DNA from: Amphiscolops sp. MND2022
Taxonomy: Eukaryota
Assembly: GCA_964187785.1 (NCBI GenBank)
Contig: OZ076412.1
Span: forward strand, 27,032,001-27,096,000
Direction: 5' to 3'
DNA length: 64,000 nucleotides
The notes beneath the pieces are model-generated. The model saw only the letters and a program-made list of their open reading frames with translations, was not told the origin of the DNA and searched no databases. Shown in pieces: positions 5,801 to 61,240 of the stretch. A program made the position numbers and the translations under genes. How positions within the stretch are numbered: position 1 is the stretch's first letter; every line of letters starts with the position of its first letter.

Positions 5801-8800
5801 ACATCCATTCTTTTGATGTTTTTGAAGATTTTAAAAAATTGAAGGGGGACTCTTTAGAGACATTGAAAATTTTCGGAAAAAGTCTCACAAAGCCGAAAAA
5901 GAGGGGAAAGTCCCAGGAAGAAGGTTCCTAAACTTCCAGAACAGGATTTGGCTCTATAATCTGAAAGAAAATCCTAAATAGGAAGTAGAATAATGTTATG
6001 AAGAGTACATGTGTGTTTGTTGCAGTGAAGAAGAGCAAAGAGAGTCTGGTGAGTGTGACGGGGGCAGGGGCCAAGAGCAGCCAGGAGGACATGTCTGCGG
6101 AGGAGCACGAGGCCAAGATAGCCGAACAGAAGCAGAAGCAGCAGGAACTCATATCAGGTACCAGCCAATGTGAAATGAAAATGTGTATGTAGTAGGCCCA
6201 TGTTCAAAGAAATTGACAAATTCTTTTCTAATCTGAAAAACCTAGGAAATATTTTATACTTGTTTGGTTCTTAGCAGAATACTGAAGCGACATTGACGCG
6301 GGCTGTCAATTTTTGGCTCAGTTTGTAAAGGTTCGATTGGGTTTAGGAGAAATTAGCCTTCTGAGATTCTTGATCAATAGTGTTTAGGAGTTAGTTTGCG
6401 ACTATGCCGCCTCACTGGTCGCACCAGTTTGTAAAGGTTCGATTGGGTTTAGGAGAAATTAGCCTTCTGAGATTCTTGATCAATAGTGTTTAGGAGTTAG
6501 TTTGCGACTATGCCTTCCTAAACCTTTACAAAAGTTGTCTCTAGGTCTTCCGAGTTCGCAGGAAGGACTTTGTTTCGAGAGAAGAGTTTGAATATATGAA
6601 AAGAATTTGAATTAGTTCGAGTATTATATTCAACAATGTTTGTTTTTACACAATACGCAAGAATACAATACAAACAAAATAATGTAATCATCCAAGTTGA
6701 CACAAATATCCAATCAATAATATCTGAATTGTTTAGCATTCACCACAAATAAATACATCAATTATTTAGGGAGCAATGTTCAGGTAAGTTGTGTAAGTAC
6801 TATAAAAACTGGAATTTTCTGATCTTATTGTCCAACAATTTGGTTAGGACAAGTGTGCTGACTTTTGACCAGAATTACAGTCTATTCAGACCGGTTTGGG
6901 GTTCCTAGAGTTCTCAACAATGTAGTGAGAGTTACTAAGTCTATTGACAATTTACGTGACAGGTTTGTCACACGTTCTAGCTTATAGGAAGCGAAGAACT
7001 AGCTTATAGGAAGCTGAGAGTTAAATAAAATAGTTTTAGCCTATATGACCAGCCAATTACTAGGTCGAAGACAGGATTGTCTTGAGCATAGACTTATAAG
7101 AAGTCTTGCGAATCTAAGTAAATTAAGGGTCTTATCTAACCAGCATTCGCTAGGTTTTTGTTCGGACAAGATTGCCGATTGGGCTCGATCCAGAGGTTCG
7201 GTGCCGTGTTCTAAGAGTTTTAACCTATTGCAATGGACCAGCAAGTTTGCTAGGTCGAGAGGAAGACAAGTTTGTCTAAAGACTTTGAAGAAGTCTTGTG
7301 AGTCTAAGTGAGTTAAAGGCCTTATTTCAACCAGCAGTTTGCTAGGTTGCTTTTTAGACAAGATTGTCAGAATTCTGTTCAATACTTTATAAGGTTACAT
7401 GCATTTTACTTTTTAATCAGTTTGTTTTACTTGCAAGTTAGCTGCAGTTATTGAAATGATCTAGACTAGCAGTCGCTAAGTCTTGACGCAATCGCGTACT
7501 AAGAGGAAAGTGATCTCCGTCGAGAATTGTTTGGGAGCGTTTAGCTCTAGTTAGTTTTCCCTATGATTTTCATAGGAGAACCTTGTCGGTTGTTTGTCTC
7601 TTCAGTCACTAGGACTGGGGGTTGTCTATAAAAGACAGGTAGGAAAAGGGAGCAAAGAAAAAAGAGAGAAATTTTGAGTTGTGAATTTTGAAGTTATTTT
7701 CTAAGTTAAAGAAAATAACTAACCTGAAGTTTGAAGCAAAGATTGGGTCGGAGAGATTTGTTCTCGCAAGAGAGAGATTTTTTTGAGAGAGATGATTTAT
7801 AGCAGAGGCGAAGAGGAGAGTCAGAGTGAGAGTGTGTGAGAGATTTATGCGAGAAAATTATGAATCAATTTGCTAGAGTCCGGCTTTTTTATACGAGCCG
7901 ACCGAACGGTACAACCAATCAAATCGATTGGCGTTTTTCATTGGATACGAAATTATTTCGTCATTATCTCGTCAATATTTTGTCCATAATTGGAATCGCA
8001 TTCACTATTGGATGCAACCGAATAGAAGTCGGCGGGGATTGCATCAGCTACCGAATATGTTCGGCTAACCGAGTTGGCTGACGCAACTCTTTGTATTTGT
8101 CAGGGGAATTAATCCTCTCAAGTGGGGGACTTTGTTCCCACTTGAGAATTCTTTTTGTTTAAAATTGAGAATTTGGCCGTACAAGTGGCGCCTATTATTC
8201 TCTTTTCAGAGATATTTACTGGCACAAGTGGCGTCGCATATTGTCTTTTTCAGGGGAGATAAAAGATAATTGTTTGCACAAGTGGCAAGCGTTTTCTTTT
8301 GTAGAGGGGAATTCTCCCTTTCATATGACGCGCAGCTGTAATTTTGTTTATCTCTAAAATTCTTTCAAGCGTGCCTGGAGAATTGAAAGAATTTGAGTAA
8401 GAGTTCACAAAAATTGAATAAAAAAAAATTCTAGCTCCGATTGAATAATTTTCTAAATATGTTTTTTTCAAATATTAAATTGAAGAAAAAGTTGTGTTAA
8501 ACACAACAACTCACCCGGGGTTTAAGAATGATTAAGTTGAAAGGGGGGCATACAGGGTATTTATGACTTTTACTTCGAAAAATATGGAATTGTTTTTTAG
8601 CCAGGGGTTCTCTGGGTTCATGAGTTCATCATGTGGGATGAAGCACAAGATGGTGATTGCTGTATTGCTGGCTGTGGGAATAGGTTTCTTGAAGCACTCA
8701 CTGTTGTTGTTATTCGTCACAATGAGCTGTTTGTAGGGTTTGTAAATATTGCCTTGACCAAGGAGGTGTATCTCGATAACGCCTTGGAAGGGCCAAGTGA

Positions 8801-11800
8801 GTATCTCATCGTAGGGTCCCGGACACATAGCCAAGCATACTGACATGTATTTCCCTTTGGCAGTGTCGATGCCATAAGGATAAGCTCGTAGATGAAAGGT
8901 GTACCCAAAGGGTTGTGAGAAGAAGATAGGGCTACAGACGTCTTTTAGGCAATTAGGATCACAATAGGGTGCTCTTACATGAGACAAACTTTTTTCGTAT
9001 TTTTCAGCATTCTGAAAAATATCAGAGAATTGATCAAGCCTCCAAATAACTTTGTAGAGGTTCCAATCCCGTGGAATTGATTTCTTTTCGATACGAAGGA
9101 CTCGCATCTCAAGTGCGTCGAGCTTTTTACTGATCTCGTGTATCATATCAGAATCAAATGTGTCATCTTTATATTGGGTGATATTGAGTTTTTGTCGAAG
9201 CAATAGTAACTCATTGATTAGGGAGTCCGTAAGGGACCTCTCATCTTCCAATTGTTCAATAAGGGTAGATGAGCTTGTGTTCATCCTGATAGGTCGTTCT
9301 GAAATTCAATGGAAAAGACTTTAAATAAATGCTGAAATAGCTCTAATAGGTACCACAATTCTCTGGTAGCCTAGGGTCGGATTTTCCAATGTAAATTCTT
9401 GACGGTTAGAATCCCAGAATACAATATTCCAATGATTATATTCGCGTTTCAAAAGATAATTTAATTCGGTCCGGAATCGTGGGTTCCTGGTGAAAATATA
9501 TTTATTAGCAGCTTCCTCGTTTTTTCGTTGTTGTCGTAGTTTTTCGTGAGCCGAGAGGGAAGCTTTTTGCCTTTTGTGAGAACGCTTGATGGACGTTGAA
9601 TGAGGTCGTTTAGTGGGTAGAGGTGTTGTTTTTAAGTTGTTGGGCGGAGGAGGTGGTGCTGTTTCAGTAACACCTTCTGCAATAGTTTCCGTTGAGAGAA
9701 ACTCTAAATCTGTTGGGGAAAGCAAGGGGAGATCAAGTAGTCCGCTGTTGTCGAGTTTTGGTTCACCTGTTAATAACTCGATTTCTTCAGCCACAGTTTT
9801 GTCGGTTTGCATATTCTGAATACTAAACATAAAAAATACAATTACACTGGAGAAACAGTATGGGTATTCGAAGTAGGGGGCCTACTTATGGCAGGGTAAA
9901 TGTGTTCGAGGGTTTCGTGCTCATTGTAATTTTTGTCTGGAGGGGTATCTGAGACCATTGGGTCATGTTGGGGAACTTGATTAAGTGTTGATATCATCGA
10001 AACTGTGAATAGATTGTAGGTTGCTGATAGAAGTATTTTGCCAATACCCCAAGAAGCTCCTGTAACTCGGTGTAGTTCAAATGAGCGAAATGTTATAACA
10101 ATCACGTTGACCAAAAACTTGATAAGAAGAAATCCACCAAACCACTGTCCCAATTTGCTAAACCAGTATTCGATAATACCAAAAGTGCTGATGAACTGTT
10201 CCTTGAAATATCCTGGTGATATCATGTTATCCACATAGAAATTTGTACGTGGTGCAAAGTAACCAAATTCGTCTGGTCCTTTGTCGGCAGCCGAAGGTAT
10301 AATGAGTTCTCGTGAAAACTTTTGCAAAGCATTCCTCGAAGCCGCGCTGATCAGAATATTGTCCCAAAAATCGCTGAGTTGTCCTTTTGTGTACATTCCA
10401 GCATCTTGAGACTCATCGAAAGCATCTTTTGTGAAAGGAGAAATCTCTTTCGGACCGAAGATAGCAGGTCTATCTCTATGTGTAGGCTCTGGATTCAAAG
10501 AAAACCAAGAGTCCTTGTCCTGCATATCTAGTTGAAAAAGGTTCTTTATTCTGTCTGTGCAATTTTGGGTATTTGCGTTGGGGTAGGTTTGTCTGGTGAT
10601 GGGGTCTACGAATTGAATTTGTCCCTTGTAGAATATGGGTATTTTGTCATAACAATTGTTCATGACATGAAGAGGTGATGAAATCAGTGGGCATGAATAG
10701 AGCCAGGCGAGACTACCATCAGTTTCAAGGAACATGGATCTATTTCCAGTAAGCATGTATCCAGCAAGGCGTGGATTTTCCAAAGACAGCATTAAAATAG
10801 TTAGAATTTGGGTCCGTTCCTGTTCGCACTGGTTTTTCAACATTTGAATTTCGGAAGATTGCAGTGCTCGGGTGCTTTCGAAGAACAGGTAATCCAGTTT
10901 TGTTCCAACTTGCATTTCATAATCCATGTTGAGCCAAGTATTAACGTACTTGTCTTTAACTGTGGCATCTCTGTTGTACACGTAAAGTCCAGGTTTCCCA
11001 GAATTGTCTGTGGAGTATTGGAGGGTATAAGATCCTCTTGTTATCCCCATCTTTCTTCCGGAAGCCATGTCAAATCCACCGGTATGTATCACAATGTACA
11101 TGGACTCGTAATTTGTGGGATATACGTCGTTTGGTTTGTTGCAGAATTTTTGAGGGTAGTTCTTCACTTCGAACAAAAATTTGGAGGAAGAATCGTTGGT
11201 GCTCACCATGTGATACCTGTGTTCATTCTTTATCATATTTACATGTTCTTCTTTCAATACTGAAAGTACACAGTTATCAGGGTGATCCCAAATATAGGCG
11301 TAGGGATCCAAGGATGTGCTTTGGCAACCCAGATCGTCAAGTTTGCATGGGAGAGGATTTCCATTTACATTGTGAACTGTTCCATCTCTCAGCTTGACGG
11401 GTAGTGTAACATCTTGAATGTGACTCTCAAAAGTATCTTTGATCATCCAAGACCTTCCAGTGCAATGGTTTCTGTTTTCTTCGCTCTTCTTTCCATTCGT
11501 ATAGGACTGAGTTAGTTTGTTTCCCTTTTTAAACTGGACCATGTGATCCAATATTTGTATCTTTCCCTCTTCTCGTGCTCTTCGACATTGTTCGGGGCTC
11601 ATATCGATATCGCTAGTTATTGTACTTTGTTCTGCATCGATACTCGCATGGTCATGATATCCACAATGCCATTTGAATCTACTGTGCTTTAGGCGGCACA
11701 TAGTGGCATTGAGTTCTGTACGAAAGTGCTTCGTGTAGACAGTGATTATGGCTGGGTTGATTTCAATATTTTCTGGGGAAACGTGGCAGGGTCTCACTTG

Positions 11801-14800
11801 ATTGAGCGCATATAATTTGTTTTCGGTCATTTCTCCACAGTCATAATGCGATACACTAAGCCTTTGTGCGATGTCATCCAGGTTTGGATTGGGGAGGCCA
11901 TTGATTAGGGAGTAGCACGTAATGAATAATATCAAAATTTTACTGCACATTTTGGAACTAACTGGGAGAAATCTTAGGTGTTTGCCAGAGCTCAGTTTTC
12001 AGCAAACTGTTAAGAAAAAATCAAAAAGAGGAAAGTTAAACGGTAGCTTGCTAACCGAGAGTTGGTGGAGTCGAATTTGACAACCAGTTAGAATCAAATT
12101 GATTCTATTGTTGAAGAATGTTCTTCAGAAACGAGAGTTGGTGGAGTCGAATTTGACAACCAATTAGAATCAAATTGATTCTGTTGTTGAAGAATGTTCT
12201 TCAGGAACTGAAACGAGACAATTATTGCCTAACGTTTTCAACCAGGGTGAACACCGAATTTGTATTTGGTAGCTTGCTAACCAAAAATAGGTGTAGTCAC
12301 AGTGATCACTGCTTTAGATTTGAGATTGGTGCACAGGTCTATGGATTGAAGATTTCAGTGTCTGGCTCAATTGATAGCCGTTTTCATAAGTACTGAAAGT
12401 ACACTCTGTTATCAGAAGTGAAGTTATGGAATTTGGGATTTGAAGTGAAAGTTGAGAAAGAGGATCGTAAAATTTTATTTACCAAACAAAAATTTATTTC
12501 AAAACGGAAATGAGATGAAATTTACAAATCATAAAACTGGATAAGATCCTTGTACAATTTGCTATATTTAGGTGAAGTGACACACTCAATGTCCATGACA
12601 CTGGTTAATTCACCTAACACAAGCAGATCAAATTTGGTGATGTGCCTTTCAGGCTTCTGTTCGTATGACAGGAGGGAAGCGGCTAGTGACGCGTATAGAA
12701 GGGTGTCCTTGTAGATTTGTTTCTGATACTTTTTGTCAGGCAGGTCGTAACGTTCAAAGTGAACGCAAATCTTGAATTCGTAGGTCCAAGTCCACCGAAT
12801 ATAGGTGATCAAAAATTGTTTGTTGTTTTCAGCAACGAAAATAGTCCAGGGGCAATTGAAACTGAGTTCTTCGTACTTTTTCTCCCAGAGGGTATCCCAG
12901 TAAATAGTAGGAGGAGGATAAATTTGAGTAATCCTCGGTTTTGTTCTTTTGCGTGAGTCTTTTTTGAGAATAGACTGTGGGTTCATTAGAGATGGTTGTT
13001 TTCTCCTCTGAACAAATCCGAAGGTATGTCTCCCACAAATTTCATAAGGTGGAGAAAATAGTCCCAATATACTGAATGTTGATCTACAAAAACAATATCT
13101 TTTTTCGAGGTGATGTAGTGCTTTACATAGATATAGATTCTGTCTTGATGCAGCTCAGTTCTATAGATCCGGTAGAATTCGTTTTCAATTTTGATGTAGG
13201 TCATACGACGAACTGAAATAGTCAAAAGTTTTTTACCCACGGCAGAGATTGATACTATGATCGTTACCGTGCTGAAAAGTTATTTACCCACGGCAGAGAT
13301 TGATACTTTGATCGTTACCGTGCTCGTTTTTGTGAAAAATTCTTTACCCACGGCAGAGATTGATGCTATGATCGTTACCGTGCTGAAAAGTTATTTACCC
13401 ACGGCAGAGATTGATACTTTGATCGTTACCGTGCTGAAAAGTTATTTACCCACGGCAGAGATTGATACTATGATCGTTACCGTGCTGAAAAGTTATTTAC
13501 CCACGGCAGAGATTGATACTTTGATCTTTACCGTGTTCAATTTTGTGAAAAAGTTATTTACCCACGGCAGAGATTGATACTATGATCGTTACCGTGCTCA
13601 ATTTTGTGAAAAAGTTATTTACCCACGGCAGAGATTGATACTATGATCGTTACCGTGCTCAATTTTGTGAAAAAGTTATTTACCCACGGCAGAGATTGAT
13701 ACTATGATCGTTACCGTGCTCAATTTTGTGAAAAAGTTATTTACCCACGGCAGAGATTGATACTATGATCGTTACCGTGCTCAAGAATTTCTGAAACGAA
13801 GGACTACAAATTAGTTATCAGTTTACGTTAAAATGACAATGAAGAGAAGAGAAAAAGAATTTTGACAAGAAGACTTTTATTTACAATATTAGAAATCTTC
13901 CATTTCCTGCCACAGCTTTAGAGTTTCAAGGAAATCAATGTACATATCATTGTAGCTCGATTTTTTACAAACATTGTCCATCTGGCTAGAGATGGTGTTG
14001 AGAGCGTCGACTTCTTGTTTTGATAGCTGTGGTTCGGGTTTCCTCATGAACGTTACTAACGCCGCAGTGAGGGACGCATAAAGGAATGAACCGGGTTTGA
14101 CCCATTTGTGGTATTTTTGTTTGGACCGGTAGTTATGGAATTTAACTTCTACATCAGCAGTTGGGTGCCAACTCCAACTTAGTTCGTCGATGATCATCGA
14201 GATTTCTTCTAATTCGGGCATGATATTCCAGGGGCAGCATTTGAAATTTATTTTGTTTATAATCACAATAGGGATGTCGTACGCAATGACAGGCTTCATC
14301 TTTGGTTGGCTTGGGCTGAAGTTTGGTCAAAATAGATACTAAAGCACGAAAATGCTGCTTGACTTACTTGGTAAAATTTAAACAAATTTTACAATTGCAA
14401 GAGCTGGATTTTTCAAAAAGCAAAATTTCATACTATTGTTTTTGTTCTTTTCACAAGGTTCTCCTTTAACAAGGCTTTGTCTTGTTTTCTTTTGTTTGTC
14501 TACTTCTTTTGTTTCCTTTTGTAGTCTTTATTGAATAGATTCTTGCATTCTTTTGTTTTCTACATGCTTTTGTTGTTACATGCAGTGGTTCCTTTTGTAA
14601 ACTCCTTTCAGTTGTTGACTTTTGTTTTTCGTTTTCTATGGTTTGCATCACTGGCTTTCATCGGCTTGTTTTGTAAAGATCGCGCTTTTGTTGTTGGATA
14701 ACGGCGGGTGCCATATGTGTTTTTGAAGTATAGTGTTGAAGTTAGCTTTGTATTGAATGCGCTTTTGTTATGGTTCAGTTCTTTTGGTGCCATGTGTTTT

Positions 14801-17800
14801 CGAGTGGTTTGAAAAGTTGTTTGTTCACAATGTGCTTTTGTAATGGTTCAATTCTATGGACGCCATGTGTGTTTTTGAAGTGGTGGCCCAAATTCGGTTT
14901 GTGTTGAATGCGCTTTTGGATGTTATTCTGATCTCTTCACATTTACAAGTAAGTTCGGTTTTCATTTTCAACTTTTGCTTTTTCTTGAATTTTTGGTAAC
15001 GTGTATATGACACGCTCGACCGCCGAAAAAGAAGTAGAGAAAAAAGTTTGAGCCATATGGTGGTGAAGCTTGGAGAGAAAGAAATGAAAGAAAAACAATT
15101 TTGAAGAACGGAGTGGAAAATGGGGGAAATTTTTAAACGGCATAAGGGGGGTGGTGAAAACGAAATTTGAGGTTGTAATTTAGTTGCGTTTCTTTAGGCT
15201 GTTTAGTACACGATGAACCGTTTGCCATTTTCTACCGCGGATGATGCTTATCTGGCACCAGATCTTTTTGCGGATATGCGATCATTGGTGACTGATTTGG
15301 AACTACCAATGATGGCGGGGACGACAGCGGTGGGCGAGGTGTTGCGACGCCCAGAACCACTCCGGAGAGCAGTGAGATTGGCGTTAGGCGAGCACGTAAG
15401 TTGTTGAGTGGTGTAACTTTTGAAGCTAAGACATTGTGGAGAAGAGATTTTGAATTAGTTCTTAGCACTAAGAGTAAAAAGGAAATGGAAAGTATTGTCT
15501 TTAGCTTCGATTGTATAAGTTCTGTAGTTGCAGTTTCTAAGTACGATAAGGTAAACAGAGACGGAATGTTTGTGAAATTAATGTTTTTGTGTATTGATTG
15601 CAGTTTGTTTTAGTGGAGATCGAAGCTACAGTCCGGAGCCAAGGACGTTTGGATTTTTAAACTAAAAGCCATTGTACGGGGATGGGAGATGACTGCTCCA
15701 CAAGATCGGCCGGACATAGCCCGACGGCTGGATCGGAGTCAGTTTTTTCAAGTGCTGCAGGACTTGGCGGAGTTGGGGGGATATATGGTGTGCCTCTGCG
15801 CGGGGCATCCTAAGCCGCCTCCAAATGGGGCGACTGTTGTCCCTGCCGAAAGGGAAGATTTATTATAAACTTTTGTTTATATTGTAAATATTTTGTTTTT
15901 GTGTTTTTATTATTTTAATATTATTTTTGTAATACTTCTGTTTTGACTTTAAATTGTAGGTTGAGAAGTAAGAGAACGTTTTTGACAGTTATAATTTCTA
16001 AAAGTTTAGCTAGAGGAGAAGGATTAGCTAAAACTTTGAGGAATCGCCTCCGTGGAGGCTTGTTGATTAAAACATCAACAATCACAGTGCTATCTATTCC
16101 AGGCAGTTCGACCATTTAAGGCGAACCGCCATAGCACAATTTTTCTTTGTAGTTTTTGTCTCTTGGGGAGACTTGTTGGCGAAAAACCGTCAACAGTCAC
16201 AGTGGCATCTATTCCACGCAGTTCAACCATTTAAGGTGAACCGCCGTACCACAAAATTTTTGTTAACAGAGTTTGTAATTAGGTGATATAAAAATGTCAA
16301 ATTTTTTGAAAAGACAGATGATCAAAAATCCCGATCCAAGAAGTTGTAGGTAACAAGCATGTGTACTGATTACAATTTCCAATAAGGCTGGGGAATTGTC
16401 CAGTGTTATTCGGGGCCAAAAAAAAGGACCGAAGAATTTGGGATTCTGAAATAAGGGTTGACACAATTTTGTACACAATTAAGGTTTTTTATCGGGGGGT
16501 AATTCTGTCCCTGTGCCTCATGACGCAGAGAATGGTGTGTAGTATCCAAATTATGTAGAGCTAGTGTTGTGAACTGAAAAGGTAGATCAGGATTTTGGCG
16601 GGACTTAGTATTAATTGATGTAATAAATGCTAGTGTTATCATTTATTTTTTAATCTTTATAGCCTTTTCTCTCAATGTCTCGGAGGGAACTGCCAGGGGT
16701 GCTTCGTTCGTATTTGGGGTTTTTGGGTTTTTCGGAAAACCGTGTAGTTACCTTCTTTTTGAAGTTAGATAGTTTTCCTGTTTTTGGGGAAACTTGATCA
16801 GGGGGAGACACTGTGTGGATTGGAGGAACGGATGGGAGAACCGGTGTTCTCTTGGGTAGGGGAGTGTTAGAAGAGAATGCGAGTGGTAAGACTGCCACAG
16901 GGAGACGTGGTGTTTGCATAGGTGGAAGTGGATTTGTTCCACAGCTTTGAGGGATACGTTCCCTTAGAATGGAATTGTTAGACGTAGATGGGATCGGGGT
17001 GTGAAATTGTGGGGTTTTCGGAGAAAGGATTCCAGAATCGGTACTGGGGGAAAATTCAGAACCCTTAGAAGTATTGTTATTCGATCCTGAAAGTGGAGTG
17101 ATAATGAGTGGCATAAAATCTAGTTTATGCTCAGGTTGTCCCGAGTTGTGTTTGTCAATTTGAGTTTGGACCAAACGCTTGTAAAAATTATCGTCCTGTT
17201 CTACAGGAGCGTAATTTGTCAGCAATGGGGGTAAAGTTTCCTCTTTGGGAAAATACTCTAGTAAGTGGTTTCGGTGAGTTACTTTAACATTTTCGGGGTT
17301 CTCATCTTCTTTAATCTCGTATGTGGTATTGGTTATTTGTTTTGTTACCGTGAAAGGTCCCACTCGTAATTGTTTCAATTTCTGTGATTTGGATAGGTCG
17401 GGTTTGTGATTCTCCAATAGGACCTTTTGACCAACCGCGAGCGGTCGTCCTAGTTTGAAACGGTTCCGATACTCATGAGCTTTCGATGTGATCTCTCTAC
17501 ATCTTTTGTAGGTAGATGAGTATATTGATTTGAAGTCGTTTTCTCTTGTAAGTAGTTCGGAAGATAACTGTGGTCTAAGGAGTCGATCGAGGGACTTGTT
17601 TCTGAGGTTATTCTCACTATGGGTGTGAGGTTGTAAATCTGCACAAAATTCTGATTTACATTGTTTGTTTTTGTCGCGAATTAGCCCAAGTTTCAAAGTC
17701 ATCGGTATTTGAGGTTTGACGCCGAAGACAATCTCGTAGGGGGTCATACCCGTTGTGTAATTTACGCTTGTGTTATGGGCAAAAGCGAATTTAGATGCAA

Positions 17801-20800
17801 GTGTTGACCAGTTGTTTCCTGACTCGTTGGTGAAATTCCTCCAGTATCTCATGAGGTGTTTGTTTTGGACTTCAACTTTGCCATTTGTCCAGGGCGAATA
17901 AGCAGTGCGCGGTGCCAGCGTTATTCCGAACTCTTTGGTCCAATTTACAAAATCGCGGTTGATAAACGCTGAGCCATTATCGTGGACAATTTTTTGGGGA
18001 ATGCCGTAGGATGTGATCCATTTTTCTAGGGCATTGATTGTGGTCTGAGCTCCTGTATCTCGGACCGGATAGACTCCAAGAAATCTTGAGAATGCATCTA
18101 CTACAACTAGACAATGTGTATTCAGGTTACTGCTTGGTCTGATGGGACCTTTGTGGTCGATATGGATTGTTTTGAAGGGGGTTGTCTCGAGTTCGCCCCA
18201 TTGTTCAAGAGGAGCTTCTTGTAGATCGTGTCGTTTAGACTTGTTAGTCTGGCATTGTAGACAATCTTCTATCAGGGATACTATCCACTTATATCGTCCA
18301 GGCCAAAAGAAATTTTGTCTGATGTTTTCGAATGTTTTAAATATGCCTGGGTGGCCACTGTGAGTATGAGCGTGGGCCAGATTAAAGAGGGGTAGGAATA
18401 ATGATAAGGGGACACAGATTTTCATTTCGCATTTGTCCGTCCCATGAATAGGTTCGTTATAGCAGAGTAGGTTGCTTTCTTTATCGAGAAAAAGTTGATT
18501 GAAATTGTTGAAGTACGACAGCAAAGCCTTCGATTGGTGAATCTCTGGTGTTTTGGCGTTCGGCTTATTCTTGTTTCTAACCCAAGCTCGTACAATTTGT
18601 AATACAGGATCGTTGATTTGTTCTGCAACTAAGGTGGTGATGTCCAAATCAGCGGTTTTAGAGTAATCGCTGAGTTTTTGTAAGAGGTCTTTGGTATCAA
18701 CGTGTGGGAATTGCTCGACATCTAAATTCTTGTTCAATAGAGGCCTTTCACTTTTCTGTGAAATGTTCTTTTCTTTCGCAGTTGATTTATCGCGATAGAA
18801 CTCGTGATCTTCGTTGGAAAGGTGAAGTTCGGCGATTTCCTCTTCATCGTCACTGGAATCGGTTTCGATGTCGTCTATTCTACTATACTCGGGTTCATAC
18901 TGTATTTTGTATGAGGGTAGACAGAGGTTTTTGTATTGATTGATGGATTTTCCCAGTTTGAAACAGTCAGCGATGTCTTGGCGAGTCGCCATTACTGTTT
19001 GTTGGTTCTCATAGTGCTCTACTTCATGTTCTTCTCCGTCATTCTTGAGATGGAGTAGCCTTTGATCTTTGCCTTTTTGGCAGAGGATAGGGAAAAAGTC
19101 ATTGCTGCCACAATGACCATCGTCATTATGCTCGATTGCATAGTGTACTTTCGATCCAAATTCATCATAGAAACTGATATCTCGCGGTATTTCTTTGTGT
19201 AGTTTTTGTAAGTTTTGGGTTTCTTCCAGCGTGACATTTCTACTAAGTATGTCTGGGAATGCGAGGTTGGATCCTTTAGTCCAGATGATTTTGAGGTTTT
19301 GGAACTTGGTGATGATTACCTGATACTTGAAAAAGCGATGTGAAAGCTGTCCTTTTCTTCCCCAGAGGTATAAAATAGGTTTGTGATCGCAATAGAGGTA
19401 TATTGGAAATGGAGATCCAATAATGTAGTGTTCGTATGTTTGGAGTGCTGATACTATGCCACACAATTCGCGATGAAGGGTGGACATCTTTTGTTCAGCT
19501 TTGTCAAATACGCGGGAATTGAAAGAAACTATCCTTTTTCCTTCTGGAAACTGTTGAACTAGTATACAACCAGTACCAACGTTCGAAGAATCGACGTGTA
19601 TGTGGAAGGGGTACTCAGTTGAAGGGACAGCAAGAATAGTGTCCTCACATATACGACTTTTTATATCAGTGAAGAGGTCTTCGTGTTCTTTCGTCCATTT
19701 GAAAGGCGTTGTAGCTTTTATCAAATCGTAGAAGGGCTGGCTATCCACGTGTAAGTTTTTGATATAGCAACTGTAAAATCCAAGACAGCCAAGTACTTTC
19801 ATCACATCTCTTTTACTTTCGGGTGATTTTAAGTTTTTTAGATCCTGTACTCTTTTTGCTAAGGGTTGTATTCCTTGTTCAGAAATAACATGTCCTAGGA
19901 ATTTGACTTTCCTGATGAAGAAATTCGTCTTCTCAGGTGCAGCTTTAAGTCCGGCTTTCCTCAGGAGCTGATGGTACTCATGAATTATCGTGAACATTTC
20001 TTGTTTGGTCTGAGCCTGCATAAGACTGTCATCAAGATAGGTGATAGCTTGTTTTCGCTTGATGAGGGGCTCAAAATGTATAGCCATGAGACGGCTAAAA
20101 AAGTTTGGAAGTCCACAGAGTCCGTAGAAACCACGTACATACGTGTACTGTTTTCCGCCGATAATAAAACTAGTGAGTTTTTGGGTCTCGTCGCTCAAAG
20201 GTACTTGGTGATATGCGCAGGATAAATCGCTGACCGTGAAGTACTTTCCGTTAATCCGAGTCATAATCATCTGAATGGGATCCAATGGCCATGAGTAATT
20301 TGTCAGATCTGTTATGGAATTTAAGTAGCGGGCGTCGATTACTAACTTTACGTAGTCTGCTTTGGGCATCAGAATGATCGGATTGACAAAAAGGGAACCT
20401 AGTTCGTCATCGTCTCCCATTTCTCTAATGATATCGGCTTCTTGGAGTTGTCCAAGTAACTTCTCAAGTTTGTCCTTCAAGTGAAGGGGTACTTTGCTTG
20501 GTCGTTGTTTCTTGAGTTCTGAATTGGCTTTGAGTGTTACGTGAAATTTTTGACGTACTTTTCCCACGTCGAATTTGTGTTGCGAATACACGTCTGCTGA
20601 GTCAATAAGCATATCTATTAGGACAACCAATTCTTCATCTTGGAGGTCAGTATATCGGAAATCGAATTTTTTCACATATTCCTTGATTTCTTCACGCTGA
20701 TATTGGAGGTAGTATTCTATCAAAGCGTCGTTATCTTCTTTTGTTCTAAGTTCAACAAATTGTTCTGTACAGGGTGGCTGACAAGATTTAGCGTCCGTAG

Positions 20801-23800
20801 CAAAATCTGTTTCAAGTTCTTCAGTACCATTAGCAAATTGTTCTGTATAATAGTCAATATCTCCTTCTTCTACTTCTTCTTTTCGTATGGAAGCGTTAAC
20901 AAGTTGGAGGTTCGGTTCGTTTCGTGATACGATCTCGACTTTAATATGTCCATAATCGAAGCTGTTACGGATTATGTCCAAAGCTCCTTTCCAGTGGATG
21001 TTATCTAAGCCATCTTCAATTTTGGGTATTGAAATTGCAGGTATATTGTTTAGTTGTGCGTGTCCAACCAAATTTTCGATGCAATTGCGAAAATCTTCGG
21101 GTTTAATTTTTTCGTAACATCTCTTTTTTGCAACTAGTCCATAGATGAAGCGATTGGCTTCGTTATCCCAAAAGGGTAAAACTGATCCGACGAAAGGTTT
21201 CGACTGGTTCACGAAATTCTGAAAATCTTTCTTCTGTTCGCACAACCTTTTTGCGAACGTGGTTGTCATTTTTCCATCTGCTGAGACACAAAAGGCTAGA
21301 TTTGCATTTGAGGCTCGAAGGGTCTCGCCGGAGCCGTGGCTTAGAAAAACTTGTTGATCTCCTTCGTGTTCGAAGGGAACTGTTGAGTGTAGCAAGAAAC
21401 AGTCGTTGTAGTCTGGGTTTTCCTTTAAAATTGTGTTGACCATCGTGACACAATCCTTTATCTGGAACTTTGGTCGTTCTTTTTCCTGTAGGTCTATGAC
21501 AGCATGACCAATTATTCCTCTATTAAGGGTTATTTGGTGATTTCGATTATTTTCAATCAAAATTGGCAGGTGGGATTCGGACTTCGTACATAAAACATTC
21601 ACAAAGGTAAGTCCTGTTTTGACTGCATTTTTGTGGGGTGTGAATGATGTTCCGGGTGCAAAATGTCTGTTATTTTCGCGGGAGTACTTGTGTAGGCGGG
21701 TAGTTTTGGCATCGATGCAAATTGGGTTATCTGTTCGTATTGTTTCGACCTTTGAAACGTACGGGAAGGGTTTGGTAGCACAAAGGTTACCGTAGCAAAT
21801 CGTGTTAGGACTGTCTTTCAATTCGATTGCAGGCAAATCAAAATGTAATTTAGAAACAAGTTGACGGCAGAAATCTATTCCCAGTAAATTGGGTGTCTTC
21901 GCTTCTGTTATCCAAAACTTTAGCTCTACAGGATGGAGTCCATCCGAGTCGAAACTGAATGTGATTGTTGTTGATCCAAGCATCGGTATAACTTCGCCAG
22001 TATAGGTTTTAGTCAGCTGTTTGCTCCTGACTACCGTGATGGGTTGTCCAAACTGTGCAATTTCCTCAAAAGCTCTGTAATTGATGATTGAACAGGCTGC
22101 TCCTGTATCTAGCATGAATTCTATTTCTAACCCACTATCTTTTTTGGAGTCTCCGGTGGGAAAAAAGAAGAGATTTAGGTGAAAACGTGATTTGAGGTTA
22201 CTTTCTTCGTCAGGTCGCGGAGACTTTAGCAGTTTAAAGGGTTGAACGAGATTGTACTAACTCTGTCCTGTCCTTCTTCGTCAATGAACTGTACGGAGTT
22301 TGGGAAACTGTTATTGTTGGTTGGGAAATTTCGGTTGTACTCAGAATTTGTGTTTTGTGGTCGTGCACTGAAGTTATACGGGCTATTTGGCCTATTTCCA
22401 GTATAGGGTGTATTGTTTCGCAAATTGGTACTAGTCGAAGTTGGTCTACTACCTGAAGAGTGATTGTTATTGCCACTGAAGTTGTTGAAGTTGTTCGACT
22501 GCTGAGGATTATTTCGGTTCCAGTTTTCATTTCGATTGTTCCCTTCGTTAGGTCTGCCTCTGTTGAAGTTTTGGTTCGACTGTTGGTTGCTTCTTTGATT
22601 ATTGGTGAAGTTCGGTCTTGGTGAAGACTGATAATTTTGTTGTGATCCAAATCCGGGTCCCTTCCGTTTGTTGTAGTCGTTGGTGAAGGTGACCTTCTTC
22701 TCTTCATTAGCTCGTGATTGTGCTCTCTTGGCTTCGTCATCGTAGATCTTCTTTCGGCAATATTGGAGTGTATGACCATTCCTTTGGCAATATTTACAAA
22801 ATCGTGTGATGTTTTGGCGGGACGTGTTATTTACGTCTACTGCAGAGACGTGATAGTCATGACAGTGAGAGGATGGGCATCCGTAGGGTAGGGAGTTAGT
22901 TACAGCTAAAGAGTTGATTTGTTGTTCTTTTAGCATATTCTTCATTGCGTTGATGTCTTCTCGTAGTTCGTTTATCAACGTTTTTTGGTTTTGTGAGGAG
23001 TTCGGAGCTAGTTGAGAGCTGATAGTAAAAACAAGGTCTTTATTAGTTACGTGTTCCTGAAATTGTTCCCAAGTAGCGTTGGGGTGTTCAATTAGGTATT
23101 GGTGAGCCTTGTTCTTTAGTTCGTTGGGCGTTAGTCCTCTGACTGCAAATTCAATGTACTTTTGCCTTCTTTGAGCGTTCAGTGCAGCTCTAGCTGCATT
23201 ATCAGCATTTTCTTCGTCTGGCCATCCTCTATCGACAGCTCGTTTCACTCGGTGAAAGTAGTTCTTTATTATTTCTTCATTCCCTCTGACACTGTTTTCT
23301 GCAGTTATTCTGTATCTGTATTTATCTCTATTGTCGGAAAAGCGGGTTAGGAAATGGGTTCTAATATGTTGCCAATCGTGTCCATCTCCTATGTTGTCTG
23401 TATACCACTCGGCGGCAGGTCCTCTTAGTAGGGATGAGAAAAGTGCTTTTTTGCGAAATAAGTATCTTGCTCGATCGTCATCATTGTCGGGTTCATGGCC
23501 CATCGAGAAATTGATTTTGTTCTCAACAGTTGTGAGAAATGATCTGACATCTTGTTCGGGGTCGTTTCCTGAGAATTTGTCCAAAGCGAGGTCGGGAAAT
23601 GAAACTGTGTTATCTGCCATTCCTCTCTTTTGCTTGAATGTGCCTCACTGGTCGCACCAGTTTGTAAAGGTTCGATTGGGTTTAGGAGAAATTAGCCTTC
23701 TGAGATTCTTGATCAATAGTGTTTAGGAGTTAGTTTGCGACTATGCCGCCTCACTGGTCGCACCAGTTTGTAAAGGTTCGATTGGGTTTAGGAGAAATTA

Positions 23801-26800
23801 GCCTTCTGAGATTCTTGATCAATAGTGTTTAGGAGTTAGTTTGCGACTATGCCTTCCTAAACCTTTACAAAAGTTGTCTCTAGGTCTTCCGAGTTCGCAG
23901 GAAGGACTTTGTTTCGAGAGAAGAGTTTGAATATATGAAAAGAATTTGAATTAGTTCGAGTATTATATTCAACAATGTTTGTTTTTACACAATACGCAAG
24001 AATACAATACAAACAAAATAATGTAATCATCCAAGTTGACACAAATATCCAATCAATAATATCTGAATTGTTTAGCATTCACCACAAATAAATACATCAA
24101 TTATTTAGGGAGCAATGTTCAGGTAAGTTGTGTAAGTACTATAAAAACTGGAATTTTCTGATCTTATTGTCCAACAATTTGGTTAGGACAAGTGTGCTGA
24201 CTTTTGACCAGAATTACAGTCTATTCAGACCGGTTTGGGGTTCCTAGAGTTCTCAACAATGTAGTGAGAGTTACTAAGTCTATTGACAATTTACGTGACA
24301 GGTTTGTCACACGTTCTAGCTTATAGGAAGCGAAGAACTAGCTTATAGGAAGCTGAGAGTTAAATAAAATAGTTTTAGCCTATATGACCAGCCAATTACT
24401 AGGTCGAAGACAGGATTGTCTTGAGCATAGACTTATAAGAAGTCTTGCGAATCTAAGTAAATTAAGGGTCTTATCTAACCAGCATTCGCTAGGTTTTTGT
24501 TCGGACAAGATTGCCGATTGGGCTCGATCCAGAGGTTCGGTGCCGTGTTCTAAGAGTTTTAACCTATTGCAATGGACCAGCAAGTTTGCTAGGTCGAGAG
24601 GAAGACAAGTTTGTCTAAAGACTTTGAAGAAGTCTTGTGAGTCTAAGTGAGTTAAAGGCCTTATTTCAACCAGCAGTTTGCTAGGTTGCTTTTTAGACAA
24701 GATTGTCAGAATTCTGTTCAATACTTTATAAGGTTACATGCATTTTACTTTTTAATCAGTTTGTTTTACTTGCAAGTTAGCTGCAGTTATTGAAATGATC
24801 TAGACTAGCAGTCGCTAAGTCTTGACGCAATCGCGTACTAAGAGGAAAGTGATCTCCGTCGAGAATTGTTTGGGAGCGTTTAGCTCTAGTTAGTTTTCCC
24901 TATGATTTTCATAGGAGAACCTTGTCGGTTGTTTGTCTCTTCAGTCACTAGGACTGGGGGTTGTCTATAAAAGACAGGTAGGAAAAGGGAGCAAAGAAAA
25001 AAGAGAGAAATTTTGAGTTGTGAATTTTGAAGTTATTTTCTAAGTTAAAGAAAATAACTAACCTGAAGTTTGAAGCAAAGATTGGGTCGGAGAGATTTGT
25101 TCTCGCAAGAGAGAGATTTTTTTGAGAGAGATGATTTATAGCAGAGGCGAAGAGGAGAGTCAGAGTGAGAGTGTGTGAGAGATTTATGCGAGAAAATTAT
25201 GAATCAATTTGCTAGAGTCCGGCTTTTTTATACGAGCCGACCGAACGGTACAACCAATCAAATCGATTGGCGTTTTTCATTGGATACGAAATTATTTCGT
25301 CATTATCTCGTCAATATTTTGTCCATAATTGGAATCGCATTCACTATTGGATGCAACCGAATAGAAGTCGGCGGGGATTGCATCAGCTACCGAATATGTT
25401 CGGCTAACCGAGTTGGCTGACGCAACTCTTTGTATTTGTCAGGGGAATTAATCCTCTCAAGTGGGGGACTTTGTTCCCACTTGAGAATTCTTTTTGTTTA
25501 AAATTGAGAATTTGGCCGTACAAGTGGCGCCTATTATTCTCTTTTCAGAGATATTTACTGGCACAAGTGGCGTCGCATATTGTCTTTTTCAGGGGAGATA
25601 AAAGATAATTGTTTGCACAAGTGGCAAGCGTTTTCTTTTGTAGAGGGGAATTCTCCCTTTCATATGACGCGCAGCTGTAATTTTGTTTATCTCTAAAATT
25701 CTTTCAAGCGTGCCTGGAGAATTGAAAGAATTTGAGTAAGAGTTCACAAAAATTGAATAAAAAAAAATTCTAGCTCCGATTGAATAATTTTCTAAATATG
25801 TTTTTTTCAAATATTAAATTGAAGAAAAAGTTGTGTTAAACACAACAAGTTGTGTCTCATTCTTCATCGAAAAAGTTACTTTTATCTTTCTGAGTTCAAT
25901 TCATGTTCTTTGAAATTAAACTACAAGAATATTTTATCCAATTACAGTGAAAGATATTGTTCAAGATCTCGAAATAGCGTGATATTTCTACCAAAGAAAC
26001 CTTTGAAGAAATTGAGAAATACTTTAAGGTTGCTTCTGTAATTTTGAACGTTGTTTCTGCGGAGGGGTACATCGATGTTGAAATCCACAAAGGGAGTCTT
26101 TTCAGATGTATAGAAGAGAATGTATACTTCACTGACAGTAAACTCGGATTTTTTACTTGTTTGTATTTAATGAAATCAGTAGTCACAAAAATTTTTGATT
26201 GCACCTTGCTGGGCTTCTAATTAGCGAGAGGTGTTGTTTCATTTCCATGTAAGGAAATACATGTATTGTCATTCTAATTCGTGATACTATTTTTGACCGA
26301 ATGCGTTCATTTTAAAATCAGCCTATATTTGTGTTTGTACTTATTTACACTCCCTTTTCCCCTAGTCTTCTCTACCTCCCGAGCATCTATAAAAAGAAGG
26401 AAAAACGACCTCTTTCTCTATTCAACTCAATCGTCGTCGACGCAAATTTCAATTTAATCCCATTTTCTCCTTCGTTCCGTCTTGTTTTACGGTGACGTAA
26501 ATGTACATCCATATTTGTCGCATCGGTTTCGCTTTCGTGTCGTGATTAGCGGCATTGGTATTAGCAAGCTTAGCCGATTTATGAAGTAATTGGCTTTGGG
26601 TACACCGAAAAAGTGATAGTATTACGTCATTGGGGTTGGATGACGTCAGCAAAGGATGAATGGGATAAAGGAAGGAATGAAAATAGAATTGTGAGTGGGA
26701 GAAATTCCCCAGAGTTGAAAAACAGTGAAATGAAGTGGATGCTAAGGTAGAACATCATGGAATGGTGACGTCACGTACTTCCACATCACGAATTGAGTGT

Positions 26801-29800
26801 GGCTCTCAAAAGCAGAAAGTTGTGACACAAATAGCATTGATTCACCTCAAATTGAAGATCTTGGAATTCTAAAGTTATCAAAAGATGCTGTAAAAATATT
26901 TCACATCTAATAAAAGACAGTTTTTGAGTTTATTCTAGCAGTCAAATAAAACTTAGCTGATGACTGGCAGGATTTTGGTGGTGGAAAATGAGAAATTTTA
27001 AGTGGGAAAAATTAATTAATTAATGTACTTTTATACGCATCAAACAATTGGAGAATGGTGTTTTGCACTACAGAGTACAGCATAGAAATGTCTCTGGTAT
27101 GCTGAAGTTGACTTCAAACAGGTTGCCTGATTTGAAGACGTTTTCACAAAACGTTGCAACTGAAACCCTCTTTGCCTGAAAGAACCCATCTGGCCCAGGA
27201 CAACTTGCTGTCAGTGTAGGGAGGATATCGGAACCTATGGTTGGCCCCTTCCACCAATCGTGTGGGTACCTCCATACAAGACTTACCATGAGAAAAGGCA
27301 TCAAAGGAGAACTTGCCATGGTAGCAGCCGGTGCCACTTTCTCCCACGCCACCGAAGGGCAAAGAAGGCAAGCCTCCTTGTAGCATTGCGTCATTGGCCA
27401 CAAACATACCACAAGTTGTAGAATTGCGCCATGCATCAATGGTTGACTTGGCGTTTGTGAAGACGTATAGACTCAATGGTTTGGGCTTGGTCTGCACAAA
27501 ATTGATGGCCTCGTGTAGACTCTCCACTGGCATGATGGGCAGAACTGGCCCGAATATCTCTTCCTGCATACACTTCTGACTTTGTTTGGCGTTTGTTATA
27601 ATTGTAGGACTGATGTACCGCTTGCTTTTGTCACGTCCTCCTCCATAAAAGATTTCCACGCCGTCTTCCGTGAGAAAAGATTCCACTCTGTCGAAATGTC
27701 TTTCGTTGACTATCTTCCCGTAATCTGGCGAGCTTGATGCATCGCTGGTGTAAAAGCTATCGATTACTTCCTTCAGCTGATTCTTGAGCTTTTCCTGAAA
27801 TTGAAACATGAGTTGATGCCATATTTAGGAAAAAGAAATGTGAATTAAGAATCGGTATAAAATATACGTCGTTCAAAAATAGAATTCCAAAAAACTGTAC
27901 ATTTCTAATGATATGACCGCAAGTTTTGATATCCTATTCTTTTCTGTTTATTTCATATACATGAAAGACATGGAAAGTGACATGGAAAACCATATTTAGA
28001 AGCTTAATTTTTAAAAATAGCCAGTTTTTGCTCCCCCTAGTATGGCGAACTATTCTATGCAAATAATTAGTGTATCTTGGTTTTTTTCTAAAATACCAGA
28101 AACAAAGGCAATTTTTATTCATTTGCTTGTAGAATTGATTTGGTTGAGGATTCAGACTAATTGATTAGTTCAGTTCGAGGTGGAAAACACAAACCTGCAT
28201 TTCTTTTGAGCACAATACGTAATCAGGGGCAATACAAGTCTGTCCACAGTTGACCAACTTGGCCCAGGCGAGTCTATTAGCTGTTATGGTGAGATCTGCA
28301 TCATCTGCCACGTATACTGGACTTTTGCCTCCCAGTTCCAAAGTAACGGGCGTCAAATATTTGGCAGCCGCAGTCATAACTATCTTTCCCACGGGCGAGC
28401 TTCCTGTGTAGAATATTTTGTCAAACTGCTGCTCCAACAGAGCCGTGGTCTCTGGTATACCCCCTGTGACGACTTTGAAGCATTCCTCGTCTAAGTACTT
28501 AGGTACCAGTTTCTCGATAAGCTCCGCAGTGGCTGGTGCCATTTCTGATGGTTTCAGTATTGCGCAGTTACCGGCTGCGATGGCGCCCACTAGCGGCAGG
28601 AAGGTGAGCTGCACAGGGTAGTTCCACGCGCCAATGATCAAAGTGACCCCATAGGGATCTTTTTGTATATAGCAAGACATGGGTTTGTACAACAGAGTTT
28701 TGGAAACATACTCAGGTTTCATCCAACTGCTAACGTTCTTCACGGCATGCTCGATGTCTGTTTCGAGGATATCGGTTTCAAACAAAACTGCTTCCGCCCT
28801 GCATTTGCCCAAATCTTTTCTCAAAGCCTCCACGAAATCGCTCTCATTTTTGGTAATGAGTGTTTTCAAGGCCTTTAGTTGATCTTTTCTGAAAGATTCA
28901 GTTTTCGTGCGCCCGGTTAAGAAAGCGGCCCGCATAGACTGTACCAGTAATTCCATATCTTCTTTCATTGCTAGGATGCTAGCTGATGTTGTGTGTTTGA
29001 ATTGGTATGAAAGCAAGAAAGCAACTAGTTTCAGACTTGTGAGACTAATAAACTGAGTTCTACGCCAAAGTACGATCACAGGACAGAAAATGTACGTCAA
29101 CTAAATAGTATTCTGGTGCTATTTTAAGATACACTGAGATGCTAGTTTCTATTGCTTGGATATTTCTCACTAACAAGAATTTAATCTACTGAATATTTGC
29201 AATCAAATCTACAGCTGAATGCGATCTAGAGAGTCAATGGCTAATGCCTTCGGCACCACTTCTGTCTGATTTCATTATGGTATCATTTGGATGCTTGCAA
29301 AGTGTGCATAATCTGCGGACTTTGTTTCATATTTTGTAAAGGTTTTATTTCACATCAGCCCAAGAGGTCGTTCCAAATTCAGCTGATCGTGGATAAGGTC
29401 GTTAGAAGAATATTTGGAACTTTTCAAAACTTCATTTTCAGCTCTGTGAGTAAATGTTCTGAGGATAACCTCAATGAGTTCGAAATATGCAGTTGAAGAT
29501 TTTAAACGTGAAAACAGCCCAATTTTTTTATGATTCATATGTTGTATATTTTAAAATAAATTCTCAACCTTGCTCTCATAAGAATTTTTAAAATAGTAAT
29601 TCAAAACATATTCTTCACTTTTGGTCAAGAAAACCACTTGCTAAGGTTTTGAATATTTGTTTTTATGGGACCGTTATTAACACGGAATAGGCTCTGCAGT
29701 TTGCAGCGTATATGACACCCTATTTTTCTCAGGCATGGCCTCACTGCAACATGGGCATCCCGGACGGTTTCTTTTTCAACATGAACTGGGTTTCAGTACG

Positions 29801-46984: not shown

Positions 46985-47246
46985 ATAGATTCTGTCGCAA
47001 GCTGCCTCTTGCGATGGTAATTATTACCAGAATACCACAGATGCGAACGAATCGGCACCCTAGGCAATCTGCCAGTATAGCAGACTTGGACATCACTTCC
47101 GCCGGACTACAAAATGAACTGGTAATGAACACTTTATACATCAAGGAACACTTGTACATCTATAGTGCCGTATGGTAATAATGGTATTTATGTCCATATG
47201 AACGAGTACTATACGTTACAAGTTGAATCAATGTTGCAATAAAAGC
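46985..47246 (+). repeat. Older repeat interrupted by the BEL/Pao element; continues at 55340-55400, paralog at ~60895-61240
   Basis: caagctgcctcttgc.atggta, acttggacatcac and ccatatgaac.agtactatacgtt.caa.ttgaatcaatgt.gca are shared with the copy near 61 kb. Confidence 0.75.
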
Positions 47247-60894: not shown

Positions 60895-61240
60895 GGTTGT
60901 CACAAGCTGCCTCTTGCCATGGTAGCTTTTACCAATCTACCTCAGCTTGAGACTGCTCTGCACCCCCAGGCGTTCTGCCTATTTACGAAACTTGGACATC
61001 ACGTCCACCGGACAACCACACAAACTAGTAAGGAACCATTTTTTCATAGTCATGAAAACTTTATAATTGTACATCTCTATTGCCTTAAGATTATGATAAA
61101 GATTTTGGTATTTACATCCATATGAACAGTACTATACGTTGCAAATTGAATCAATGTCGCAGTAAATGCAGTAATTTTGTGTGAATCAATTTAGATAGCT
61201 TTAATCGAAAAGGAAACGCTTTCAACTGGTACGATGCTGT
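60895..61240 (+). repeat. Uninterrupted paralog of the repeat hit by the BEL/Pao element
   Basis: Reads through the site equivalent to the TSD (gcagtaaatgc|agtaatt versus gcaataaaagc|agtgaatt). Confidence 0.75.

Follow-up and report, generated by a model that had tools for sequence, protein, structure and literature searches.

How does a retroelement in an invertebrate genome come to carry eight genes in 19.5 kb, and do these genes belong together? The question was raised by a stretch of 64,000 nucleotides from Amphiscolops sp. MND2022 (assembly GCA_964187785.1, contig OZ076412.1, positions 27,032,001-27,096,000), referred to here as the window, in which the minus strand holds an element with long terminal repeats (LTRs) that spans 25847 to 6324; coordinates below are positions in the window. 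We found that this element is a single genuine, very recently inserted, multicopy unit of the Ty3/Gypsy type. The reading that we prefer, and consider probable, is that it is an env-bearing, autonomous member of an old "complex" sub-lineage, still spreading at present, whose accessory genes benefit it through modulation of the host cell.

Structure of the element

The two LTRs (5' LTR, 23663..25847; 3' LTR, 6324..8508; both minus strand) are 2,185 bp each, have TG...CA ends and align without a single mismatch. Both flanks of the element carry the 4-bp target-site duplication (TSD) AACT (6320..6323 and 25848-25851). The bases at 6320-6323 are also the four found at 23659-23662, directly past the 5' LTR, probably by chance, since the TSDs of other copies differ. 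Eight open reading frames (ORFs) free of internal stops lie on the minus strand, namely, gag, pol, A, 72, B, env, 169 and a TRAF-like ORF. Their Pfam matches were to Retrotrans_gag, protease, RVT_1, RNase H, integrase, Monjiviricetes_fusion (E value of 1.4e-39) and TRAF-mep_MATH (E value of 7e-22). A reading made earlier from the sequence alone (the sequence-only reading) had described apparently identical LTRs and eight intact ORFs, and both descriptions held when the LTR pair was aligned and the frames were examined.

The gag ORF (22226..23620, minus strand) encodes 464 amino acids (aa) with one Cys/His knuckle-like motif and an N/Q-rich tail. The primer-binding site (PBS; 23642..23659, minus strand) comprises 18 nt complementary to the 3' end of a host tRNA-Met(CAT), including its CCA. 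The PBS pattern matched 11 places in the genome, 7 of them with the exact 15 encoded bases, and ARAGORN called a tRNA-Met(CAT) for one of the three matching loci that were fetched; by its features we take this tRNA to be the elongator type. The plus-strand primer tract (..CCCCGGGTGAGT; 8509..8523, minus strand) is atypical and is similar in three element groups. By its LTR ends, short TSD, tRNA PBS, order of Pol domains and a reverse transcriptase (RT)-RNase H (RH) region nearest to that of Ty3, the element belongs to Ty3/Gypsy (Metaviridae).

Copies and age of the insertions

A 15-mer from the LTR end occurs 70 times in the genome. With the window's two extra matches set aside, these occurrences resolve into 32 LTR pairs and 4 single ends, and solo LTRs are therefore rare. 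The spacing of the pairs was 17.0-17.9 kb in 27 cases, shorter in 4 and longer in 1. The segment comprising TRAF and 169 was present in at least 35 copies at 98-100% identity among the 40 scored of 96 candidates, and env in at least 30 full-length copies at 99% identity or more, 28 of them without a stop, among the 63 scored of 8,427 candidates.

Ten other copies, chosen via the TRAF segment from those scoring best, were fetched. A 4-bp TSD was present in nine; the LTR pairs showed no mismatch in six (one with a 2-base gap) and one mismatch in three. The tenth, with 21 LTR mismatches and no TSD, looks like a recombinant. The very recent insertion proposed in the sequence-only reading thus agrees with the 0-1 LTR mismatches in nine of the ten copies, with their TSDs and with the identical LTRs of the window copy. 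Each copy has a distinct LTR type, 97-99% identical to that of the window, which argues against a collapsed assembly. The gag, A, 72, B and 169 ORFs were undisrupted in all ten copies, and pol (one 5-kb deletion), env and TRAF in nine. Because these copies had been picked through the TRAF segment, the reverse comparison was made starting from pol, and each of the 40 pol matches scored (of 441 candidates) had a TRAF match 5.6-11.4 kb away on the same strand. Copies without the 8.5-16.6 kb segment, a possibility raised in the sequence-only reading, were not encountered in this comparison. A 106-bp duplication of the U5 end and PBS, overlooked in that reading, was observed in both LTRs of the window copy and in no other copy; it would fit a template whose primer site was doubled and that was reverse-transcribed once.

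Pol and its macrodomain

The pol frame (16650..22256, minus strand; 1,868 codons from stop to stop) encodes, in order, a protease (DTG), a spacer domain of ~130 aa, a macrodomain, RT (YLDD), RNase H, a bridge of ~290 aa, integrase (HHCC, DDE) and an SH3-like tail. The order protease-RT-RH-integrase is conventional for the type, and the DTG, YxDD and DDE motifs are intact. Compared with solved enzymes, the RT-RH region was nearest to Ty3 (E value of 2.5e-35), followed by foamy virus Pol (1.6e-23), 8r0s (1e-21), which we take to be a caulimoviral-type polyprotein, and gammaretroviral enzymes (4e-15). A search of 230 aa of the bridge between RH and integrase for a "mini" or "pseudo" RNase H gave no match in the PDB at the sequence level.

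The macrodomain (20901..21383, minus strand) fell below the Pfam cut-off (E value of 0.01) and matched human TARG1/C6orf130 clearly in the PDB (E value of 1e-10), in agreement with the macrodomain that the sequence-only reading had placed inside pol. It is therefore of the cellular TARG1/OARD1 type, and identity with the viral-type, anti-interferon MacroD was rejected. TARG1 has Lys84/Asp125 as its catalytic pair, and enzymes of this kind take both nucleic-acid ends and modified acidic residues as targets (PMC8120803). The equivalents of both residues are present in the window macrodomain. Both glycine-rich phosphate-binding loops are unlike those of human TARG1 in the window and in a relative, L029, and are near-canonical in L028, P0224-P0227 and P0229. 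Folding of the macrodomain from its single sequence gave no confident model (predicted local distance difference test [pLDDT] of 35).

Env and the accessory genes

Downstream of pol lie env, 4.7 kb away, and five accessory ORFs, the first of which, A, is separated from pol by 2.3 kb of non-coding sequence. The env ORF (9842..11950, minus strand) encodes 702 aa with a signal peptide, 16 cysteines, four N-glycan sequons and a single transmembrane helix; no RxK/RR furin site was found in it. As a separate ORF 3' of pol with a signal peptide, Cys-rich ectodomain and transmembrane helix, it places the element among the errantiviruses in the broad sense. The Monjiviricetes-type fusion domain led us to reject the baculovirus-F type of the Drosophila errantiviruses for this protein. 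Sequence searches of the PDB, with the single protein and with a 27-row profile, gave no match, and no relatives were found in viral and metagenome contigs.

The TRAF-like ORF (8532..9284, minus strand; 250 aa) opens with a predicted helical stretch, continues into a TRAF-C/MATH domain and lacks the N-terminal RING and zinc fingers of TRAF2-6; TRAF1 is likewise RING-less. Its best solved matches were TRAF1, 5, 2 and 3 (TRAF1, E value of 4e-13). MATH matches in the genome numbered at least 150 among 440 candidates, most of them in repeated copies. A single-copy host TRAF-like gene was located near 90.867 Mb on C3. One GT-AG intron precedes its MATH exon and another its final strand, and a second host paralogue (L034) has the last-strand intron too. 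The element genes have neither intron. Identity to the host gene was 42% for the window and 48% for the distant family described below (plus 41% over the upstream exon), and the window protein gave no match to that upstream exon. Intronless genes with this degree of identity to an intron-bearing host gene point to capture via a spliced mRNA. Trees neither show nor reject one capture (approximately unbiased test, p values of 0.08 and 0.16), and the same position of TRAF in three families favors a single capture or replacement in place. About 2 kb ahead of the host gene's first located exon is a BEL/Pao element whose long frames are open (L035:2913-6999, minus strand).

ORFs A (13889..14299, minus strand; 136 aa) and B (12522..12986, minus strand; 154 aa) are paralogues with 31% identity (E value of 2e-16), a relationship missed in the sequence-only reading, and belong to a family of 60 clusters at 50% identity. 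The predicted model of B was confident (pLDDT of 80), with four strands and three helices, and Foldseek comparison with the PDB and BFVD gave no match at an E value of ≤0.001 (best VIA Z, 4.9), which shows neither a new fold nor a lack of relatives. The 72-aa ORF (12986..13204, minus strand), whose stop overlaps the ATG of B, is 38% identical to the 71-aa ORF of the distant family, and its candidacy as a third A/B paralogue was not supported (hhalign probability of 0.1%). The 169-aa ORF (9321..9830, minus strand) has its conserved start at the second Met, giving 163 aa, and encodes an acidic, Leu-rich start, a Pro-rich and basic middle and a C-terminal domain of ~70 aa that is conserved across three families. 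A suspected resemblance of this domain to Sm/Hfq-like proteins was not borne out by any Pfam or PDB match. Atlas searches with B and with the 169 C-terminal domain were blank. In all, no known homologue was found by Pfam, PDB, Atlas and fold searches for four of the five accessory ORFs.

Selection was assessed by pairwise Nei-Gojobori counts of nonsynonymous and synonymous change (dN/dS) between the window and its sister subfamily, L022, or, for parts of Pol, between the window and L029. The ratios were 0.13 for 72, 0.12 for B, 0.019 for env, 0.13 for 169 and 0.052 for TRAF (all p<1e-6). For A, dS was saturated and dN was 0.175 (p<1e-6). Within Pol, the macrodomain gave 0.067 and RT gave 0.011. 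Purifying selection therefore holds the five accessory ORFs, env and the macrodomain, and the lack of such selection on the accessory ORFs, against which the sequence-only reading had set its interpretation, is not what the ratios of 0.02-0.13 (env and macrodomain included, A saturated) indicate. Two further ORFs were rejected as genes. One encodes 73 hydrophobic aa within the LTRs (6518-6739 and 23857-24078, minus strand) and is open in every young copy and in the sister subfamily, with a dN/dS of 0.5-0.9 (p≥0.22); the other, of 78 aa, follows pol and has homopolymer indels in 4 of the 10 copies.

Expression signals

A -1 slippery heptamer, T TTA AAC (22226..22238, minus strand), is located at the gag stop in all 11 young copies and also in L028 and L029; no strong structure was predicted downstream of it (-6.2 kcal/mol over 80 nt). 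The stop-restart sequence TAATG joins 72 to B in the window and in the sister subfamily. Acceptor-like sites precede all six downstream ORFs and, scored ad hoc against 241 background ATGs, fall within the top 2.5-9.1%; elsewhere they are strong for four of six ORFs in L022 and, in the distant family, for just the 71- and 169-like ORFs. The window and L022 have in common a TATA-like motif (25223..25234, minus strand), for which a promoter role seems probable, and a donor-like island ~170 nt downstream. Within this conserved island lies the candidate major splice donor CAG/GTTAGT (25056..25067, minus strand), found in 10 of 10 copies, which reads GTAAGT in L022. The splicing, frameshift and stop-restart features proposed in the sequence-only reading are thus all present as putative signals.

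Related families and order of gain

The distant family (L023/L028) is ~19.1 kb long, with LTRs 99.6% alike, a 4-bp TSD and the PBS and slippery site as in the window. Three A/B paralogues and homologues of 72 (71 aa) and of 169 are encoded in it, together with an env of 62% identity and a TRAF of 325 aa (32%). In L037, a third family, the A/B-like ORFs reach an E value of 2e-7 at best; its env is 61% identical, its 169 homologue 43% and its MATH gene 23-24% (E value of 9e-12). The Pol of this family is as long as that of the macrodomain-bearing P0225, suggesting a macrodomain insert there. The gene order small ORFs-env-169-TRAF is common to the window and to these two families. A 214-aa antisense ORF, Ser/Ala-rich and with no match in a Pfam search, was noted in the L037 cassette (L037:687-1331, minus strand).

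In family L038, which lacks the macrodomain, env follows pol after 111 nt, and no TRAF or A/B match was found over 9 kb. Env is followed by an unrelated 519-aa ORF (L038:3991-5550, minus strand), for which a long coiled coil was predicted and neither Pfam nor the PDB gave a match. In a quick RT-RH tree (68 rows, four short matches left out; rooted at the midpoint, without a reference set and with a warning of long branches), every macrodomain-bearing row fell in one 13-row clade (96) nested in a 23-row clade, which a branch of 1.69 splits from the remaining Gypsy rows. Since the basal, env-bearing L038 has neither cassette nor macrodomain, env may have been gained first and the macrodomain and cassette later, an order drawn from one basal family. 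The insertions are very young and the complex layout is old within the lineage. The sequence-only reading had spoken of an independently evolved complex organization; the layout is real, and its order, shared with distant families, is ancient in the lineage.

The wider lineage gave ~45,000 candidate pol matches in the 1.07-Gb genome, of which it therefore forms a major part. The best match of P0225 in G000 was just 65%, and the macrodomain clade therefore probably spans other hosts. Pol and env relatives lacking the macrodomain (clusters P0235 and P0108) lie on contigs whose lengths agree (13,247 and 6,653 bases), a sign of linked genes in another dataset.

Comparison with known systems

The vertebrate complex retroviruses (lenti-, delta-, spuma- and epsilon-) carry small accessory genes around env, some of them host-directed. 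The element resembles them in layout, with several small genes around env and probably spliced RNAs. It stands outside the Retroviridae, with an RT-RH region closest to Ty3 among solved structures and a monjivirus-type fusogen as Env. A close published precedent is Burro/GYPSM1 of planarians, described as giant and Gypsy-like, with a TRAF-C domain, a mononegaviral-like env and accessory ORFs (PMC6431247). Both are giant, recent and abundant LTR elements with a MATH_TRAF_C domain, an env and an extra domain between protease and RT, and in the Burro of Dugesia tigrina, MATH_TRAF_C is likewise a separate accessory ORF (PMC6431247). In Burro, env and most extras are in frame in a polyprotein of ~4,900 aa between gag and pol, and the domains include BIR, BCL2, ankyrin and SUMO-like ones, with no mention of a macrodomain in the text available (PMC6431247). 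Here, in contrast, env and each of the five accessory ORFs form genes of their own on the 3' side of pol, the TARG1 domain is in Pol, and no Pfam match to BIR, BCL2 or ankyrin domains was found among the ORFs; on these features the element falls outside Burro.

The "ancient errantiviruses" with an HSV/gB-type env are multicopy Ty3/Gypsy elements with gag, pol and env, widespread in non-insect animals (Chary and Hayashi, PMC13524379). They share with the window element a chuvirus/monjivirus-related env with a signal peptide, Cys-rich ectodomain and transmembrane helix, the furin site being optional there; they differ in having three ORFs alone, and "macro," "TRAF" and "accessory" are absent from the main text (PMC13524379). 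As described in the available text, that survey accepted pol-env gaps of ≤1 kb and regions of ≤10 kb (PMC13524379), and its filter would miss the window element because of the 4.7-kb gap. Fish epsilon-like endogenous retroviruses (ERVs) also captured a macro domain; according to the text consulted they are true Retroviridae and carry it in additional ORFs, not as an insertion in Pol (PMC4977317). Bdelloid rotifers have LTR elements that are, like the window element, of the Gypsy type and from invertebrates, and that carry captured enzymes, an env and a domain placed between protease and RT; they usually have one ORF3, with mostly neutral intragenomic variation, and neither "macro" nor TRAF-type cargo appears in the text available (PMC5408684). 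The sequence-only claim of an undescribed combination was therefore overstated, given Burro/GYPSM1 as a close precedent (PMC6431247) and the macro ORFs of fish ERVs (PMC4977317), as far as these sources were covered. No published description of this exact layout was found in the literature searched, which did not extend to Repbase, GyDB or subscription journals.

Proposed functions and alternative explanations

We propose that genomic RNA would be transcribed from the LTR promoter and that Gag-Pol would be made by a -1 frameshift at U UUA AAC. The R/U5 donor would be spliced to acceptors ahead of A, 72, env, 169 and TRAF, and B would be produced by stop-restart. Env would then carry particles between host cells towards germ or stem cells, which we consider likely. 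A RING-less TRAF-C is expected from TRAF biology to behave as a dominant-negative adaptor, and we see an even chance that the captured domain would be a decoy damping, in either the producing or the receiving cell, the receptor signals that lead to NF-kB, JNK or cell death. The macrodomain lies between the spacer domain and RT and would travel with the replication complex, which points to shielding of that complex rather than to a free anti-immune enzyme. Removal or shielding of ADP-ribose by this domain, whether on the complex itself, on its RNA or on nicked cDNA, is plausible for the lineage, at a little short of an even chance, and less so for the window family. A nuclear role for the 169 protein in regulating transcription or RNA export is suggested tentatively, as a guess from its composition. 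The boldest version, that an invertebrate Ty3/Gypsy lineage independently evolved a lentivirus-like, spliced infectious cycle with two host-derived counter-defense genes (one for a TRAF decoy, the other for a TARG1 hydrolase that is packaged along with RT and integrase), we regard as rather unlikely.

Several observations weigh against host modulation and an infectious cycle. The macrodomain motifs are eroded in P0228 and P0230, and the window macrodomain, with its altered loops, is 42% identical to that of the nearest family, versus 87% for RT; together these suggest a relaxed or changed function, and ADP-ribose activity is doubtful for the window family. TRAF identity between families is just 23-32%, the TRAF-C groove is presumably unlike that of TRAF2, and the host gene that served as donor is a divergent paralogue without an assigned role. 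The constraint on env would show that the protein is used, not that it spreads between animals. Several ORFs of the distant family have weak acceptors, and a pattern search found no matching donor there.

The alternative that survives best, unlikely as we judge it, is that the accessory genes act in the element's own replication (RNA export, assembly, trafficking or Env handling) and not on immunity; MATH would then be a generic scaffold or an adaptor of the ubiquitin pathway, and the macrodomain a spacer or a module that binds nucleic acids. The four accessory ORFs without a known homologue, macrodomain loops altered in a domain still constrained, and the rapid divergence of TRAF among families would all be consistent with it. 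Modulation of the host cell accounts better for the solved TRAFs as best matches, for a donor that is a host TRAF-like gene and for the canonical TARG1 motifs kept in sister families; Burro, moreover, independently combines TRAF-C with apoptosis regulators in the part of that report available (PMC6431247).

A second alternative concerns expression only: the downstream ORFs might form an operon whose messages are separated by trans-splicing of a spliced leader, or be reached by reinitiation, rather than be expressed by cis-splicing from an LTR donor. Tiny intergenic gaps (11 nt between env and 169, 36 nt between 169 and TRAF), T-rich YAG acceptors near the ATGs, a gag without a donor-like site, and the stop-start junctions that replace acceptors in the distant families are in line with this, and the conserved CAG/GT(T/A)AGT island ~170 nt past the TATA motif in two subfamilies makes it improbable. 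An explanation of the 8.5-16.6 kb segment as passive cargo, nesting or misassembly, at which the few internally deleted copies (4 of the 32 LTR pairs short) and the non-coding stretch between pol and A might hint, is already refuted by the linkage of pol and TRAF in 40 of 40 cases, the copy-specific identical LTR pairs with TSDs, the strong purifying selection and the gene order conserved in three families.

If the boldest version is true, PARP-mediated ADP-ribosylation of retroelement complexes and TRAF signaling would be anti-retroelement defenses in an invertebrate; the element offers direct objects for testing whether they restrain such elements in invertebrates. One genome displays a stepwise gain of retrovirus-like complexity outside vertebrates, with an env-only relative and three full-cassette families (Pol macrodomain observed or probable), and the captured host gene can be followed back to a donor family that has introns. 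A/B, 72 and 169 add three families of accessory proteins for which no known homologue was found. The size filters of the current errantivirus survey, as given in its available text, exclude elements of this size and so expose a blind spot (PMC13524379).

Other features of the window

Within the element, a tandem array of ~61-bp units (13221..13796) varies from 7 to 13 units across the 13 copies counted. Short direct repeats lie at 12053-12208 (in the spacer before env), 16054-16264 (after pol) and 7029-7366 (inside the LTR). Beyond the 5' LTR, and 1.3 kb from it, is the 3' end of a host class-3 aldehyde dehydrogenase gene (27147-29100, minus strand). A decayed, small Gypsy-like element (40061-45855, minus strand) has LTRs of ~190 bp that are 94% alike, a probable 5-bp TSD, GTACT, and a pol ~25% identical to that of the main element. 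A BEL/Pao element (47247-55334, plus strand) has 678-bp LTRs 99.1% alike and the 5-bp TSD AAAGC; it encodes Peptidase_A17, RT, integrase and DUF5641, and in-frame stops break its pol. A repeat of ~260 bp (46993-47246 and 60898-61169; 71% alike) abuts the BEL element and is possibly an older element split by it.

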